Below are positions 5,167 through 11,375 of a stretch of DNA of 60,025 nt, piece after piece; position 1 is the first letter of the stretch; every line of letters begins with the position of its first letter. Made by a program: the position numbers and the translations under genes. This DNA is from Tissierellia bacterium (GTDB lineage: Bacteria; Bacillota; Clostridia; Tissierellales; Tepidimicrobiaceae). The DNA lies in assembly GCA_012518955.1 (NCBI GenBank), contig JAAYRD010000168.1, forward strand, positions 1-60,025, in the 5' to 3' direction. The notes below the pieces were generated by a model, which was given only the letters and a program-made list of their open reading frames with translations, was not told where the DNA came from and did not search any database.

Positions 5167-6696
5167 CTACTTTGCATACTCAATGGCACGAGTTTCTCTA
5201 ATAACATTTACTTTTATTTGACCAGGGTAATCTAGTTCAGATTCAATTTTCTTTACAATCGCTCTAGCAGTATGAACTATTTGATCGTCTTTGATATTTT
5301 CTGGTTTTACCATAATTCTTAGCTCACGTCCTGCTTGTACTGCATAAGATTTTTCTATACCATCGAAGGAATTAGCGATTTCTTCCAGCTTTTCTAACCT
5401 TTTAATATATGCCTCTAAAGTTTCCCTTCGGGCTCCTGGTCTTGCTGCAGAAATTGCATCTGCTGCTTGTACTAATACCGCCTCTACTGTTTCTGCTTCC
5501 ACATCTCCATGATGTGCTGCGATTGCATGTAAAACTTCTTTAGACTCCTTGTATTTCCTGGCTAAATTAACACCAATATCTACATGTGGTCCTTCCACTT
5601 CATGATCAACAGCCTTACCTATATCGTGCAATAAACCTGCTCGCTTTGCGATCCTTACATCAGCCCCAAGTTCTGCTGCCATAATACCTGCAAGATGAGC
5701 AACCTCAATAGAATGTTTAAGCACATTTTGTCCATAGCTTGTTCTGTATTTTAATCTACCTAATAATTTAATTAACTCTGAGTGAAGCCCATGAATTTCA
5801 GTTTCAAAAGCTGCTTGTTCTCCCTCTTCTCTTATAATGTTGTCTACCTCTTTTTTAGCTTTTTCAACCATTTCCTCAATTCGTGCTGGATGAATTCTTC
5901 CATCTACTATTAATTTTTCAAGAGCAAGTCTTGCAACTTCCCTTCTTATAGGATCAAAGCCAGATAAAACTACAGCCTCTGGAGTATCATCTATAATTAA
6001 ATCAATACCCGTTAAGGTTTCTAAGGTTCTAATATTTCTACCTTCTCGTCCAATAATTCTACCTTTCATCTCATCATTTGGAAGAACAACTACAGTTACA
6101 GTAGATTCAATAACATGTTCAGCTGCATATTTTTGAATTGCACATGATATTATTTCCCTTGCTTTCTTTTCAGCTTCTTCTCTGGTTTTGTTTTCCATCT
6201 CTTTGATCATCAAAGCTGATTCATGTGTTATTTCTTTCCTAATATCATTTAATAACAATTGTTTTGCTTCTTCAGACGTCAAGCCAGAGAGTCTTTCTAA
6301 TTCTTCTACTTGCTTCTTATATAATTCATCAATTATGCTTTCTTTTTCATCTAGATTTTTGGACCTTTTAGCAATTATATCCTCTTTTCTCTCAAGCGCT
6401 TCACTTTTCCTATCGATGGATTCCTCTTTATTTAAGAGACGTCGCTCTAATTTTTGAATTTCGGTCCTTCTTTCTCTATTCTCTTTTTCATTGTCAATTC
6501 TTATTCGATGAATCTCCTCTTTCGCTTCTAGGAGAAGCTCTTTTTTATGAGTCTCAGCATCCCTGTTTGCATCTTCTATAATTCGCTTTGACAATTCTTC
6601 AGCATTATTAATTTTTCCTTCAGCAAGTATTTTTCTTGTATAAAAACCAATTAAAATTCCTGCAATTGCACTTAAAATTACATAAACAGTTTCAAT
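5167..6696 (-). CDS. rny: ribonuclease Y (HD/KH endoribonuclease), with probable non-canonical ATT start
   Basis: KH ([11 protein letters not shown]) and HD ([12 protein letters not shown]) domains. The track ORF starts at TTG 6594, but the frame stays open to 6714 and encodes the expected N-terminal membrane helix ([18 protein letters not shown]). GGAGGTG RBS at 6704-6710 lies 7 nt before ATT 6696. Confidence 0.85.
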
Positions 6697-6763
6697 AACG
6701 ATGCACCTCCTATTCTATTTAGTTTTCAAGTTTCATAATACATATTTCTGTAATTAAAACATT

Positions 6764-6795
6764 GAATAAAAATATAAACCGAGTAGTCCCGGCTT
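6764..6795 (-). terminator. hairpin plus U-tract downstream of the four-gene block and inside the rny leader
   Basis: Minus-strand RNA AAGCCGGG-ACUA-CUCGGUUU (8 bp including 2 G-U pairs), followed by AUAUUUUUAUU. Confidence 0.5.
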
Positions 6796-6838
6796 ATAGA
6801 GTCTACACATATAAATTTGTACAACTAGGTACGATTTC

Positions 6839-6867
6839 ATTTTATTACTTTTAACGAGATATGTCAA
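6839..6867 (-). promoter_or_regulatory. sigma-A type promoter for rny (TTGACA-17 nt-TAAAAT)
   Basis: Minus strand: TTGACA (6867-6862), 17-nt spacer, TAAAAT (6844-6839). It begins 6 nt after the stop of the upstream gene. Confidence 0.6.
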
Positions 6868-6872
6868 GAAGA

Positions 6873-7529
6873 TTAGTCAGATGTTATTTGGTCTAGGTGA
6901 CTTTCAGTTCCTTTCAAAGATACCCTATATGCCTTTGTACCAATGGAGGAAAGGTGATTGTTGTGAGTTACCATAATAATCTGTCTTTCAAACATCTCAG
7001 ATGTTCTTTTTAAAAAATCTGCTACGTTAAATATATAATCTTCACTTACATGTTTAGCTGGCTCGTCTAAAATAAGAGGCCCTTCTATTTTAGGTTTATG
7101 AGCTTGAAGAAAAGCTATACGTAAAGCTAAAGATATTATATCAACAACTCCACCACCTCTAGACTGTTCTGGTTTTGTTTTAATTGTGGCATCTTCTGCT
7201 TTTGTAATAACATAAAATTCTGCACTTGGTTTTCCATACAGTTCTTCAATTTCAATTTCAAATTCTACATTGTTTTCAAATATATATTGAATACAATTGG
7301 TTACTAAAGATTCTATTTGATTCTTAGCTTGGCTTCTTGCAAATTCAGAAGTTTTTTGTAATAACAAACTGACCTTTTCAATTAAACTAACTTTTTTATA
7401 AATTGATTTTATTAATTCTTTATTTTCACTAATTTGTTCTATTAACTTTTCTCTCTTACCTTCTTCTTTGGAAATAAAAGAATCAATTTGTGACAAACAA
7501 TTATCTAAAGTTTCATAATTATCGATCAT
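6873..7529 (-). CDS. Rad50/SbcC/SMC-like ATPase, C-terminal head half (signature-like motif, Walker B, H-loop) with a short N-terminal coiled coil
   Basis: SRGGGVVDIISLALRIAF (signature-like), PLILDEPAKHV (Walker B/D-loop), IIMVTHNNH (H-loop). The first roughly 100 aa are heptad-rich. ATG lies 4 nt after the upstream stop. Confidence 0.75.
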   Translation of the reverse strand: MIDNYETLDNCLSQIDSFISKEEGKREKLIEQISENKELIKSIYKKVSLIEKVSLLLQKTSEFARSQAKNQIESLVTNCIQYIFENNVEFEIEIEELYGKPSAEFYVITKAEDATIKTKPEQSRGGGVVDIISLALRIAFLQAHKPKIEGPLILDEPAKHVSEDYIFNVADFLKRTSEMFERQIIMVTHNNHLSSIGTKAYRVSLKGTESHLDQITSD

Positions 7530-7533
7530 AGAA

Positions 7534-7782
7534 TCACTTCTTTTCTAAAATATCTTTTGGTAATAAATCATTAGCTTCTTTAAATAGATTTTTTATTTCT
7601 TTAGTTAAAATATCTATTTCTTTTTCTAATTCCAAAGGGTTAACCCCTAAGTCTTTTAATTCTTTAATTATTTCCTGTTCTTGATTGTTAAGCTGCTCCA
7701 ATCGTGCTTCAGCCTTATATTTCAAAGTTTTAGCTTTTTCTAAGTCCTCTCTTAAAATATTTAAATCCTTTTCATAGTCCAT
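7534..7782 (-). CDS. 82-aa coiled-coil protein (unknown function), middle gene of the split Rad50-like module
   Basis: K/E/L-rich heptad sequence. It has its own GGAGGA RBS 8 nt before the ATG, so it is an independent ORF and not a frameshift remnant. Confidence 0.6.
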   Translation of the reverse strand: MDYEKDLNILREDLEKAKTLKYKAEARLEQLNNQEQEIIKELKDLGVNPLELEKEIDILTKEIKNLFKEANDLLPKDILEKK

Positions 7783-7796
7783 AGCAATATTCCTCC

Positions 7797-9239
7797 TTAT
7801 TTATAGCTATTTATAATCTCATCTATCTTTAACTTATCTATATTACCAAAGCATATGGGACATACTTCTATTTTAGTTAACATGAGCCTATATTGCTTTA
7901 GCAGTTTATTCATTTGTATATTAATGCCTTCCAGAGTAGTTTTTGTTTCCAGCTTATTATTCTTTATATAATAATAATTTTTTTTGCAATCCATCAATCT
8001 TTCCAAAAGGTTTGTTTTCATCTCTAATGATTCTTTTATTGCTAAAATAGAATCTGTTTTAGATAATTCACCTACATAAATTGTACCAATAGAAAGACTT
8101 TTCTTTATTTGCTCTAATTTATTTTTCAAATTTGAAAGTTTTGAAAGTTTTAAAAGATTATTTTCTATTAATTTGGTTTTTTTATCTATATCATAAATTT
8201 CCTTTAAGTTTACCAATATTTTTTTATGGCTATTAATTTTATTTATAGTATATTTATACCTTATGTTTAACTTATTTAATCTATTTAGTTTATTATATAA
8301 ATCAGTTATATCTTTAACAATCCTATCGGCTTCATTAAGATCTTGGAGATAAAATAAAAGTTTCTTATTATTTCCTATTTGAGTTTTAACATTTTTTAAA
8401 ATAGTGTATCTATTATTAATATAATTAAATTTTTCAATTTTTTCTTTTAAACTCTTTTCAATTTTTATGATTTGATAGATATTATTTAAATCTTCCAAGT
8501 CCTTTTTTAGCAATGTCGAATCTTCTTCTATTTTCTTTAAAAGAGTTAGAGATTTTTCTAGTTTTTTAAGCCTTACTTCATTATTGTAAATAATCTGCTT
8601 TATTTCTTTAAGCCTATTGAAGTCTTCTATCAATTTATCTAAATAATCATACTCGCTCAAATCTTTTTCTAGTTTCTCTAACGTATCTTCATGATTTTTT
8701 TTCCTTATATTTAAATTTCTAATATCTTTTAGTGTATCCTTTAAAGCATCATCAACTATGTGAACCCCAACTATTCTACCAATTGCGTTGGCTTTAGTTG
8801 AATTTTTTTCAGAAATTAAAAAAGGTCCCTCTAATTGTTCACTAATATTAATTGAATTAGACTGATTGCTATCTAGTTCTACTTTTCTTATAGAGGTTAT
8901 ATCTTTAATCTCTTGGGGAACTGAGGTGCCAAATCCTTCAAAAATCATTTCGTCCCCTGATGCATTATACAGATAATATGTGTTCTTACTTTTACTTCTA
9001 AACCTTTTTACCTTTACATTATCGTTAAATATAACGGTAACACTACATTCGCTTTCCCCTTCTCTAATAAAAAAGTCTCCAGCAGGCTCATTGAATAAAA
9101 CCCATTTTAATGCTCTTATAATTGCAGACTTGCCCTGATCAGAAGGACCTACAATAACGTTTAAATATGGATCAAGTTCTATTTCTGAATATTTATGAGA
9201 CTGAAAGTTTTCTAAAATTAACTTTTTAATATACTTCAT
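7797..9239 (-). CDS. Rad50/SbcC/SMC-like ATPase, N-terminal head half (Walker A), long coiled coil and CxxC zinc-hook-like motif
   Basis: IKKLILENFQSH...VIVGPSDQGKSAIIRALKWV (Walker A), about 290 aa of K/E/L/N/I coiled-coil sequence, then EVCPICFGN 21 aa from the C-terminus. Start could be ATG 9239 (1 nt after the upstream stop) or ATG 9251. Confidence 0.75.
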   Translation of the reverse strand: MKYIKKLILENFQSHKYSEIELDPYLNVIVGPSDQGKSAIIRALKWVLFNEPAGDFFIREGESECSVTVIFNDNVKVKRFRSKSKNTYYLYNASGDEMIFEGFGTSVPQEIKDITSIRKVELDSNQSNSINISEQLEGPFLISEKNSTKANAIGRIVGVHIVDDALKDTLKDIRNLNIRKKNHEDTLEKLEKDLSEYDYLDKLIEDFNRLKEIKQIIYNNEVRLKKLEKSLTLLKKIEEDSTLLKKDLEDLNNIYQIIKIEKSLKEKIEKFNYINNRYTILKNVKTQIGNNKKLLFYLQDLNEADRIVKDITDLYNKLNRLNKLNIRYKYTINKINSHKKILVNLKEIYDIDKKTKLIENNLLKLSKLSNLKNKLEQIKKSLSIGTIYVGELSKTDSILAIKESLEMKTNLLERLMDCKKNYYYIKNNKLETKTTLEGINIQMNKLLKQYRLMLTKIEVCPICFGNIDKLKIDEIINSYK

Positions 9240-9240
9240 A

Positions 9241-10227
9241 TTATAATCCATCTCCTAAATCTTTCATTTGGGATAGAGCTATTCTTCTAAGAGCCTCTTC
9301 TTTTACTTCATTCGATATTCCTTCCACACTAGAGATTTCCATTAGAATTTCATTTATTTCTAACTTTTCAAAATTAATAGCTTCATCAACAGATTGCTTA
9401 AACTCTAGTAATCTTTCGCTTTTAAATACATGATTTTCAATTTCCTGTCTATCTAATACGTCCTCACCCCTAGATGCAACTTGTAAATTCATAAGTCTAA
9501 TATTAATAGTTTCATCCAAATCTATCAAGGCCACTTGTGGTATTCTATTTATTTCTGATAAACTATTAGTGACACGTATAAGACTTCCTGGGTTTATAAA
9601 GTACTTTTCATCAATATTTATTATCCCAAAACCAGAATGATAATGTCCCGATAAGGTAATATTGGCCTTGGTAGATTTAATATCATCTATTAAAGTATAG
9701 GGTATATCTTCTATAAAAGGTTTGTTTAACAACATACCATGAACCATATGGATTGCATAGTTTACGTCTTTAGAAACATATTTTACAATGTAATTATCCC
9801 TATTGTTCTCATCATCTATATTATATGTATAAGGATAGCCTGTTAGTTGTACTTTTATATCATCTTTTTGTAAGAAAATAGTATCATCTCTATTGATTAT
9901 ATTTATTATATTTAAAGAATCTAATAACCCTAGCATAGTTCTATTTATTGTATCAGGATTATGTCCATATATATCATGGTTTCCACATACAATATAAACA
10001 GGTACCTTTATATCGTTTAATATTGAAGCAAAGCTACTTACAATGGAAACAGATATATCTGGTCTATCAAATAAATCTCCCCCATGAAGTACAAAATCAA
10101 CATTATGATCTTTTACAATTTTCACTATTTCTTTAAATTTATTCATCAATGTTATAGGTAAGTTATCCGTTCTATTTTTAGGAGTTGTACCCCTTATATG
10201 TGTATCAGTTAAAAAAAGTATTCTCAA
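9241..10227 (-). CDS. Mre11/SbcD-like calcineurin-fold metallophosphoesterase (DNA repair exonuclease family)
   Basis: Ordered motifs LTDTHIRG, HGGDLFD, CGNHD, MVHG and SGHYH. TTG start with GGAGTG RBS. C-terminal helical tail. Confidence 0.8.
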   Translation of the reverse strand: MRILFLTDTHIRGTTPKNRTDNLPITLMNKFKEIVKIVKDHNVDFVLHGGDLFDRPDISVSIVSSFASILNDIKVPVYIVCGNHDIYGHNPDTINRTMLGLLDSLNIINIINRDDTIFLQKDDIKVQLTGYPYTYNIDDENNRDNYIVKYVSKDVNYAIHMVHGMLLNKPFIEDIPYTLIDDIKSTKANITLSGHYHSGFGIINIDEKYFINPGSLIRVTNSLSEINRIPQVALIDLDETINIRLMNLQVASRGEDVLDRQEIENHVFKSERLLEFKQSVDEAINFEKLEINEILMEISSVEGISNEVKEEALRRIALSQMKDLGDGL

Positions 10228-10248: not shown

Positions 10249-10270
10249 AAACCTCCCACATAGGAGGTTT
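10249..10270 (-). terminator. hairpin (terminator or attenuator) overlapping the recA stop codon
   Basis: AAACCTCC-6 nt-GGAGGTTT. The minus-strand RNA continues GUUUAUAAGGAGUG, running straight into the RBS of the next gene. Confidence 0.6.
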
Positions 10271-11321
10271 ATTTGGTTTTCTTTTCTATATTCTCTTCTT
10301 TATCTTTAATAGAGCTATTTTTTATAGGAGCCAAATTGTATTTTTCTCTTATTTTCGTCTCTATTTCTGCCATTATATCAGGATTGTCTCTTAAAAAATC
10401 CTTAGCATTTTCCCTTCCTTGTCCAAGTCTATGTTCTCCATAGCTATACCAAGAACCTGCTTTATTGATAATATCTGCATTTGCACCGGTATCTAGTATA
10501 TTGCCTTCTTTTGATATCCCAAGACCATACATAATGTCAAATTCGGCAACTTTAAATGGTGGAGCTACTTTGTTTTTTACAACTCTAACCCTTGTCCTGT
10601 TACCTATCATATTATCGCCTTGTTTAATTGTTTCAATTCTTCTTACATCTAATCGTACACTTGAATAGAATTTCAATGCTCTACCACCTGTGGTAGTTTC
10701 AGGATTTCCAAACATTATTCCAACTTTTTCCCTTAATTGATTAATAAAGATTACAGTTGCATTGGATTTGTTTATTGCACCAGCTAATTTTCTAAGTGCT
10801 TGGGACATCAATCTCGCTTGTAATCCAACATGACTATCTCCCATTTCACCTTCTATTTCTGCTTTTGGTACCAGTGCAGCAACTGAGTCTACAACCACAA
10901 TATCAATAGCCCCACTTCTTACCAATGCTTCCGCAATTTCTAGTGCTTCTTCTCCAGTATCTGGTTGAGATATAATTAGATTCTCCGTATCTACTCCTAG
11001 TTTCTTTGCATATCCGGGATCTAGAGCATGTTCTGCATCAATAAAAGCTGCAATTCCATCACATTTTTGAGCTTCTGCAATTACGTGGAGTGCTACCGTG
11101 GTTTTACCCGATGATTCCGGCCCATATACTTCTATTATCCTTCCTCTTGGAAGTCCTCCTATACCTAATGCTATGTCTAAATCTAGGGAACCAGTTGGTA
11201 TAACCCCAATTTCTTCAATTTTTGTATCGCCTAGCCGCATTATAGAGCCTTTTCCAAATTGTTTTTCGATTTGGCCTATAGCTACTTCTAATACTTTTTT
11301 CTTTTCTTTCATATCCGCCAT
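10269..11321 (-). CDS. recA: recombinase RecA
   Basis: GPESSGKTT Walker A and classic RecA sequence throughout. ATG 11321 is preferred over the track's GTG 11327. Confidence 0.97.
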
Positions 11322-11361
11322 TTTCACCCAGTTTAACTGGATACACCACCTTTCAAGTATT

Positions 11362-11375
11362 AGAACATAAGTTCT
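11362..11375 (-). promoter_or_regulatory. LexA (Cheo/SOS) box upstream of recA
   Basis: AGAACATAAGTTCT, a perfect GAAC-N4-GTTC palindrome a few nt downstream of the -10. Confidence 0.75.

Follow-up and report, generated by a model that had tools for sequence, protein, structure and literature searches.

In a Tissierellia bacterium, four closely packed genes run head to tail between recA and rny, all on the minus strand. What do they encode, and why does the part that resembles Rad50 come in separate pieces? The locus lies on contig JAAYRD010000168.1 of assembly GCA_012518955.1 (Tissierellales, Tepidimicrobiaceae), of which positions 1 to 60,025 were analysed; this whole stretch is called the window here. 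An earlier note, made from the letters of the DNA, had described an Mre11/SbcD-type nuclease gene tightly coupled to three genes for a Rad50/SbcC-like protein, and the four open reading frames (ORFs) are indeed present between recA and rny (ORF1 to ORF4; coordinates in Table 1). We propose that the block encodes an Mre11-Rad50-type machine that processes DNA ends for recombinational double-strand-break repair, the Rad50 part of which is made of separate polypeptides. We put the probability of this reading at about 75%.

ORF1 has the fold of an Mre11 nuclease, and its metal site is complete. It matches the calcineurin-like phosphoesterase family PF00149 in Pfam at 7e-15, and its metal ligands D8, H10, D51, N83, H84, H163, H195 and H197 are invariant among 32 sequences that include distant lineages. 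The family profile finds Mre11 structures at about 2e-7 and E. coli SbcD at only 3e-3. The AlphaFold2 model has a predicted local distance difference test score (pLDDT) of 80 and a predicted template-modelling score (pTM) of 0.77. Searched with Foldseek against the PDB, it returns Mre11 proteins for all of its best 50 matches (E values of 1e-12 to 4e-10; query-normalised TM scores of 0.50-0.62; 264-313 aligned columns in 49 of the 50), so that the assignment holds for the Mre11 fold as a whole, nuclease core with capping region, and not just for a generic phosphoesterase. As for the C-terminal tail, helices are predicted at residues 260-283, 291-299 and 306-323, with a low confidence (pLDDT 42-63). 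In the model, these helices are candidates for a Rad50-binding tail.

The two halves of a Rad50 ATPase head reside on ORF2 and ORF4. ORF2 comprises lobe I, with the Walker A motif and the Q-loop, followed by a helical arm and a zinc hook, and ORF4 comprises a short helical stalk followed by lobe II, with the Walker B Asp-Glu pair, the D-loop and the H-loop. Against the archaeal Rad50 model of NCBIfam, residues 8-118 of ORF2 match the first 116 positions (1.4e-12) and residues 3-218 of ORF4 match positions 649-872, the last 224 of 872 (1.7e-11). Among solved structures, the family profiles fall best on the corresponding halves of Pyrococcus furiosus Rad50, chain 3qkr_A for ORF2 (8e-11) and chain 3qkr_B for ORF4 (2.8e-14), which bears out the head identities given to both proteins in the earlier note. 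With the same profiles, structural maintenance of chromosomes (SMC) proteins score at least three orders of magnitude worse than P. furiosus Rad50, Thermotoga maritima Rad50 comes in at only 1e-4, and the listed matches do not include E. coli SbcC. Foldseek on the ORF2 model places the N lobe of Methanocaldococcus jannaschii Rad50 first, with P. furiosus Rad50 also at the top. Every motif quoted in the note for the nuclease and for the head halves is present and conserved in the family alignments. In ORF2 these include NFQSH, GPSDxGK(S/T) and Q139 of the Q-loop. In ORF4, G126 of the signature region is invariant, and G125 and G127 are at least 90% conserved. The helices of the ORF2 monomer are confidently modelled; its pTM of 0.31 makes the global arrangement of the arm unreadable. 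Residues 126-165, which include the Q-loop, form the most conserved stretch of ORF2, yet they are poorly placed in the monomer (pLDDT 36-47), as is expected of an interface that needs ORF4.

The C-terminus of ORF2 carries a Rad50-type CPxC zinc hook, for which zinc binding is predicted from the sequence. C464, P465 and C467 are invariant in 117 ORF2 sequences, and the chain closes with ...EVCPICFGNIDKLKIDEIINSYK shortly after them. In the homologues of Thermacetogenium, Tumebacillus, Desulfovirgula, phages and plasmids, the CPxC motif likewise lies 13-32 residues from the C-terminus. When the last 66 residues are searched as a profile against the PDB, the first match is 1L8D, the zinc hook of P. 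furiosus Rad50 (3.5e-5, 65 residues aligned). The two align end to end, CPxC on CPVC and the ORF2 tail on LTDEHREELLSKY. The Pfam hook model PF04423 matches 6 of 20 members of the ORF2 family, at best with 4.4e-4, which is under its cut-off. Given the position of CPxC near the end of ORF2, the chain is cut about 20 residues past the hook, where the descending helix of an ordinary Rad50 would run on.

The split is natural and old. We scanned one genome per GTDB species, obtained 283 matches and examined the best 80, which are mostly of the Tissierellia type. As far as their contigs reach, 80 of 80 loci show the order cinA-recA-ORF1-ORF2-ORF3-ORF4-rny, after which spoVS and a PHP-domain gene usually come. 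The Rad50-related genes are always separate ORFs of 479-489, 81-88 and 216-231 aa (lengths that exclude start-codon over-extensions in automatic calls), spaced by -11 to +19 nt. The corresponding spacings in the window are -11 or +1 nt (ORF1/ORF2), 14 nt (ORF2/ORF3) and 4 nt (ORF3/ORF4). The start of ORF2 is more likely Met5, at 9239, which gives 480 aa: this is the length of most homologues, and an AGGAG box is found 12 nt upstream of the Met5 codon. Across the 80 loci, identity is 55-77% for ORF1, 38-63% for ORF2 and 56-84% for ORF4. Among 654 ORF2 homologues, the full-length ones listed, down to 41% identity, have 479-490 aa. No single-chain full-length relative occurs among the best 120 matches of ORF2 and the best 150 of ORF4 that were listed. 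ORF4 retrieves 1253 of 1.84 billion cluster representatives at E<=1e-10, and most of the best 150 have 205-240 aa; the family thus consists chiefly of stand-alone proteins of about 215 aa. Its named members belong to Thermoanaerobacterales, Desulfovirgula, Thermacetogenium, Syntrophomonadaceae, Peptococcaceae, Desulfolucanica and Tumebacillus. The survey of related genomes that the note had called for thus shows both the split layout and the place between recA and rny kept in the 80 loci, as far as their contigs reach, with no uninterrupted ORF among them.

One description given earlier needs amendment in the light of this conservation. To call the module 'inserted' is misleading, as it is a fixed core-genome arrangement in Tissierellales-type genomes. 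The block had also been said to be rich in A/T and in Lys, Asn and Ile; low GC content is seen, but it is restricted to the ORF2 arm, with 0.22-0.24 over the arm versus 0.29-0.36 in the flanks. A recent horizontal island, which the low GC might suggest, is ruled out both by that restriction and by synteny across 80 species. Since the block is syntenic in all related loci, the dip reflects the Lys/Asn/Ile/Leu-rich helical arm and not recent import.

The arm itself has an unusual build, an exact 47-residue tandem repeat. In an autocorrelation of the ORF2 profile over residues 175-462, the lags 47, 94 and 141 are the top three of 149, and writing the sequence in rows of 47 brings the hydrophobic positions into register from residue 161 up to the hook. 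A boundary motif resembling VLxxTxGLxxAE recurs across lineages. Six repeats are present in the window and in the Tissierellia-type homologues (alignment A4), five in Thermacetogenium phaeum, Desulfovirgula and an uncultured bacterium (L086), and seven in Tumebacillus; N-head lengths of 434-444, 480-494 and 534-540 aa fit five, six and seven repeats. In the AlphaFold2 model, the arm helices break only at residues 303-304 and 349-351, both of which are repeat boundaries. Forty-seven residues amount to 13 alpha-helical turns at 3.6 residues per turn, about 7 nm or roughly two turns of B-DNA, so that each repeat would show the same face. Together, the end of the chain shortly past the hook and the exact 47-residue arm repeat are new features. 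The earlier note had overlooked the hook motif, the repeat and the spread of the family far outside this lineage.

ORF3, the small third protein, is a conserved partner. Its ribosome-binding site, AAGGAGGA, is the strongest in the block, and its identity across the 80 related loci is 56-84%, compared with 38-63% for ORF2. In distant Firmicutes, the equivalent place in the module is taken by homologues with 35-41% identity. Two prolines, P49 and P75, are invariant, and G46 is nearly so. The protein is predicted to form a helix, an LGVxP segment and a second helix. It has no relative in Pfam, NCBIfam, PADLOC or the PDB, where only generic or designed coiled coils were returned. The idea that ORF3 is a free copy of the 47-residue arm repeat was rejected (hhalign E 0.18-0.26), and a comparison with the ORF4 N-terminus was unconvincing (E 2.4e-4, 44% probability). 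The three-part split Rad50 of the earlier note is therefore right as regards the two halves in ORF2 and ORF4 and the presence of a conserved partner, but no family or structure match makes ORF3 a Rad50 fragment. ORF3 is found only where an arm and a hook exist. Its tie to that part of the complex is suggested by Desulforudis (L095), in which ORF3 has been lost together with arm and hook.

Desulforudis possesses a coil-less fused variant (L095 6040-8107), in which a 319-aa phosphoesterase is followed by a single chain of 368 aa that joins the N lobe directly to the C lobe (P0229/P0275). This variant, without arm, hook or ORF3, lies directly upstream of addB-addA. As for the other distant chromosomal loci, nurA (PF09376) and herA (PF01935) are found at most two genes upstream of the module in six of seven, namely in T. 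phaeum (L081), Tumebacillus algifaecis (L083), Desulfovirgula (L085), an uncultured bacterium (L086), a Clostridiales metagenome-assembled genome (L092) and a Bacilli one (L093). The exception is a metagenome bin (L094), with an RNase_T-like exonuclease and a 294-aa protein without Pfam match. The distant modules encode a phosphoesterase of 325-329 aa, an N-head protein of 434-540 aa, a small protein of 84-103 aa and a C-head protein of 216-228 aa. Pfam has no match for three proteins of 234-294 aa that are encoded next to modules: one in L094 (3331-4215), where it occupies the place of nurA and herA, one in L092 (7670-8374), just past the C-head gene, and gp6 of phage 0305phi8-36 (L089 5243-5959), between the small and the C-head genes.

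The module also occurs in phages and plasmids. In phage 0305phi8-36, in pCBJ of Clostridium baratii and in pGspE55-1 of Geobacillus, ORF1 and ORF2 are fused into a protein of 769-801 aa that ends in CPxC, and each fusion gene is followed 3' by a small gene and by a C-head gene for 212-236 aa. These natural fusions suggest contact between the nuclease and the N-head protein. In 0305phi8-36, the fusion gp8 is 34% identical to ORF1 and 36% to ORF2, the C-head is gp5, and the small gene gp7 lies between them. The phage protein has been described as an Mre11/Rad50 fusion of which one P-loop NTPase segment 'was not observed' (Yoshida, Claverie and Ogata 2011, PMC3175470). That 'missing' segment is the separately encoded C-head, gp5. 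Another module-bearing Bacillus phage is phBC6A51. In phage vB_BboS-125, the N-head (gp32), the small protein (gp34) and the C-head (gp35) are unfused, and gp33 (L088 5128-5700), an HNH_3+AP2 protein that resembles homing endonucleases, sits exactly between the N-head and the small genes. As a single example, it hints that insertion of a mobile endonuclease is tolerated at the split junction or may have produced it. In IMG/VR, 29 contigs carry ORF4 relatives, and 25 of the 29 also have ORF1-like and ORF2-like genes nearby. In many viral contigs (L106-L124), the order is N-head, nuclease, C-head, so that the nuclease gene stands between the two Rad50 halves; ORF3-like genes were undetectable by BLAST in these contigs.

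How might the products work together? ORF2 and ORF4 would rebuild an ABC-ATPase head in trans, as the engineered two-chain Rad50 catalytic domains do, and two such heads would engage on ATP and clamp DNA. A dimer of ORF1 would dock on the stalk by its C-terminal helices and cut blocked or hairpin ends. Two ORF2 chains could share a zinc ion through their CPxC motifs, and ORF3 would complete or cap the arm near the hook. The block would rise with DNA damage and pass resected ends to RecA; in other Firmicutes, the module might work with NurA-HerA or AddAB. Between the two roles suggested earlier, DNA-end processing and foreign-DNA surveillance, the former is favoured by the gene contexts, since recA, nurA-herA and addBA all have functions in double-strand-break recombination, and the latter is without specific support.

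Several observations weigh against the proposed repair machine. On the curated models of Rad50, SbcC, SbcD and Mre11, all matches fall far short of the cut-offs: ORF1 scores 37 bits against TIGR00619 (cut-off 77.65) and 24-31 bits against the Mre11 equivalog models (cut-offs about 435-600). In the profile alignment, G125 of ORF4 takes the place of the Rad50 signature Ser, which is absent, and without it the ATP-driven engagement of the heads may differ or be weak. Searches of the window, and of the 80 related loci out to 7 kb, turn up neither herA nor nurA; weak HerA matches at 14.7-15.6 kb look like another ATPase gene of the FtsK/HerA superfamily. In tblastn searches, ORF4 matches Bacillus phages and non-mobilizable plasmids of Clostridium, Geobacillus and Paenibacillus, and this occurrence leaves a role in replication or element maintenance possible. 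The coupling to DNA damage is read from the sequence only: read-through from the recA promoter, with its LexA box, probably accounts for transcription of the block, and it is the simplest arrangement because the gap from the recA stop to the ORF1 ribosome-binding site cannot accommodate a promoter. Finally, the arm steps by whole 47-residue repeats and the lengths of ORF3 (about 80-105 aa) and ORF4 (about 210-230 aa) stay roughly constant. As the arm varies in length and its supposed partners do not, a simple 1:1(:1) antiparallel pairing of the arm with ORF3 and the ORF4 stalk does not fit, and a canonical intramolecular antiparallel arm is unlikely.

The partner of the arm could instead be a second ORF2, several copies of ORF3, or the arm itself folded back. 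It is tempting to speculate on a homotypic assembly, for instance two parallel ORF2 chains that reach a shared CPxC zinc, or one ORF2 helix with several ORF3 molecules, in which ORF3 would be a dedicated subunit of arm and hook. We regard this architecture as a tentative suggestion with the odds somewhat against it.

Among other explanations for the block as a whole, the one that fares best sees in it a system akin to Lamassu, Gabija, PARIS or Wadjet, with an SMC-like ATPase and a nuclease, that keeps watch over phages and plasmids and destroys the ends of foreign DNA. ORF2 and ORF4 do have weak PADLOC matches to LmuB, GajA, AriA and PtuA (best 9.9e-11, 39.5 bits), but most of these span only the first 50 or so residues, the generic P-loop region, at 40 bits or less, and ORF3 has none. 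A CPxC hook is common in LmuB proteins, and Rad50 complexes are able to restrict extrachromosomal DNA; LmuB generally has Gln at the catalytic Walker B position (reviewed in PMC10586767), where ORF4 retains the catalytic Glu. In addition, no LmuA, GajB, AriB or JetABD partner gene is present, the synteny is that of a core region fixed in 80 species and not of a variable island, the neighbours are recA, nurA-herA or addBA, and phages themselves bear the module. We consider such a surveillance role improbable.

Alternatively, the block could be a domesticated or resident recombination module of a phage or plasmid, devoted to the replication or maintenance of linear or concatemeric element DNA and not to chromosomal repair. 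Its homologues in Bacillus phages, in the 29 IMG/VR contigs and in non-mobilizable plasmids would fit, as would a GC content below that of the flanks. However, the low GC concerns the arm only, the window and the 80 loci show housekeeping flanks (cinA, recA, rny, spoVS) in fixed order with no phage genes, and identity declines gradually with synteny kept, as it does for the flanking housekeeping genes. This origin and role appear very improbable. The last possibility, an sbcC or rad50 gene broken by nonsense or frameshift mutations, would account for three head-to-tail ORFs in three reading frames that jointly resemble one Rad50, but it is refuted by the equal-length ORFs at 38-84% identity in all related loci, by the same split in other classes, phages and plasmids, and by the invariance of all catalytic motifs.

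The flanking signals and a number of annotated motifs are listed in Table 1. The hairpin between the recA stop and the ORF1 ribosome-binding site is probably a leaky terminator or attenuator, and the one downstream of ORF4 is a probable operon end. Between the ORF4 stop and that downstream hairpin, a strong promoter-like TTGACA-17-TAAAAT (11 of 12 matches; minus strand, 6839-6867) precedes a leader of rny of roughly 140 nt that contains the hairpin. The rny gene itself appears to start further upstream than called. The membrane helix of RNase Y is encoded 5' of the first ATG, GTG or TTG (6594-6717, minus strand), in a stretch delimited by an in-frame stop at 6717-6715 and preceded by GGAGG at 6710-6706. 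The start is probably the ATT at 6696-6694, or else the ATC at 6702. ATT occupies the aligned codon in 33 of 65 related loci, within a conserved GGAGGTG..GTTATTGAA; two loci (L011 and L014) have an ATG two codons upstream of it.

Table 1. Coordinates of the four genes, their motifs and the neighbouring features in the window
Feature	Position	Strand	Remarks
ORF1, Mre11-fold metallophosphoesterase nuclease	9241..10227	-	328 aa; residues 260-323 are a helical tail at the C-terminus
ORF2, Rad50 N-terminal head lobe, helical arm and zinc hook	7797..9251	-	484 aa as called
ORF2 Walker A, GPSDQGKS	9126..9149	-	residues 35-42; in 117 sequences, no variation at G35, S37, D38, G40 and K41
ORF2 arm, six exact 47-residue tandem repeats	7926..8771	-	residues 161-442; profile autocorrelation and stacking
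ORF2 zinc-hook motif, CPIC	7851..7862	-	residues 464-467; chain ends 17 residues on
ORF3, helix-LGVxP-helix coiled-coil protein, conserved accessory subunit	7534..7782	-	82 aa
ORF4, N-terminal helices (about residues 1-95) and Rad50 C-terminal head lobe	6873..7529	-	218 aa
ORF4 deviant signature, RGGG, in place of LSGG(E/Q)	7149..7160	-	residues 124-127; family consensus RGGGVVD
ORF4 Walker B and start of D-loop, LILDEP	7059..7076	-	residues 152-157; D155, E156 and P157 invariant in 61 diverse sequences
ORF4 H-loop, His189	6963-6965	-	invariant in 61 diverse sequences
recA, directly 5' of ORF1, same orientation, probable transcription source	10269..11327	-	from the ORF list; 73-88% identity in related loci
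rny, 3' of the block	5167-6594 as called	-	from the ORF list
LexA/Cheo-type SOS box, aGAACTTATGTTCt	11363..11374	.	sole perfect GAACN4GTTC in the window; before the recA start
recA promoter-like TTGACT-17-TACAAT	11410-11382		SOS box 7 nt downstream
Hairpin between recA stop and ORF1 ribosome-binding site	10249..10270	-	listed by the scan for the + strand only; weak T tract in the recA direction
Terminator-like hairpin, 11-bp stem then TTTTTATT	6773..6798	-	75 nt past the ORF4 stop; terminator scan

Among known systems, the archaeal Mre11-Rad50 complexes of P. furiosus, M. jannaschii and Sulfolobus provide the best sequence and structure matches for the Rad50 lobes, the hook and Mre11. In archaea, these genes form a herA-mre11-rad50-nurA cluster (PMC2288612, PMC3326311), which the nurA-herA linkage in six of the seven distant Firmicute loci mirrors; in the window, the neighbour is recA instead. 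Archaeal Rad50 is one chain, whereas here the cut falls just past the hook and a third, small protein accompanies the two pieces. The 47-residue repeat arm, the RGGG signature and the shorter ORF1 (about 328 aa) further set the module apart from the archaeal one. With bacterial SbcCD (E. coli, and Mre11-Rad50 of T. maritima), the block shares the order of nuclease gene then ATPase gene, the superfamily folds and, in motif II of the nuclease, GDxxD in place of GDxxH. However, similarity is much weaker, as the values for E. coli SbcD and T. maritima Rad50 given above indicate, and SbcC is a single chain of about 1000 aa. Firmicutes also have a specific SMC-like ATPase with a phosphoesterase, SbcEF (YhaN/YhaO) of Bacillus subtilis, which is implicated in the repair of double-strand breaks and in which YhaN is a single chain of about 960 aa. 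Weak matches to the YhaN-type AAA_27 domain of Pfam are found in 19 of 20 ORF2-family members, at best with 6.6e-6. As for the Mre11/Rad50 fusions of phages and plasmids, gp8 is a direct homologue of ORF1 plus ORF2, but the nuclease of the window is unfused. In the engineered two-chain Rad50 (PDB 1F2T, 1II8, 3QKR), the N and C halves are likewise separate chains that form an active-looking head, and chains A and B correspond in the alignments to ORF2 and ORF4. The engineered proteins were truncated in the laboratory and lack arm and hook, in contrast to the natural split described here, which keeps both on the N-terminal piece.

The module lacks two features that define canonical Rad50, namely one chain with an intramolecular arm and a signature that contains Ser. 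We found no published account of a split Rad50 or SbcC in the searchable literature, in agreement with the note's view that the system is uncharacterised, although an earlier mention in classification work is possible. Current labels of ORF4-family proteins are 'ATPase', 'chromosome segregation ATPase', 'RecN' and 'hypothetical', and ORF3 is nameless; the annotation of both families would improve. The old puzzle of the second ATPase segment of the 0305phi8-36 fusion is resolved.

How the arms and the zinc hook of Rad50 signal to the ATPase head and to Mre11 is debated, and tests of this question rely on engineered truncations. A natural and widely conserved system whose head would be formed in trans, with arm and hook confined to one piece, an additional small subunit and an arm length that shifts by exactly 47 residues at a time, lends itself to separating the functions of arm, hook and head. 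If the arm is indeed a homotypic assembly of 47-residue units, it would represent a new architecture among SMC-like proteins, and nature would provide a Rad50 whose arm and hook can be separated genetically from head lobe II. Bacterial end resection is usually drawn as AddAB or RecBCD plus SbcCD. An archaeal-like Mre11-Rad50 set is present in many Firmicutes, often together with NurA-HerA, and fills a gap in the picture of end resection in bacteria.

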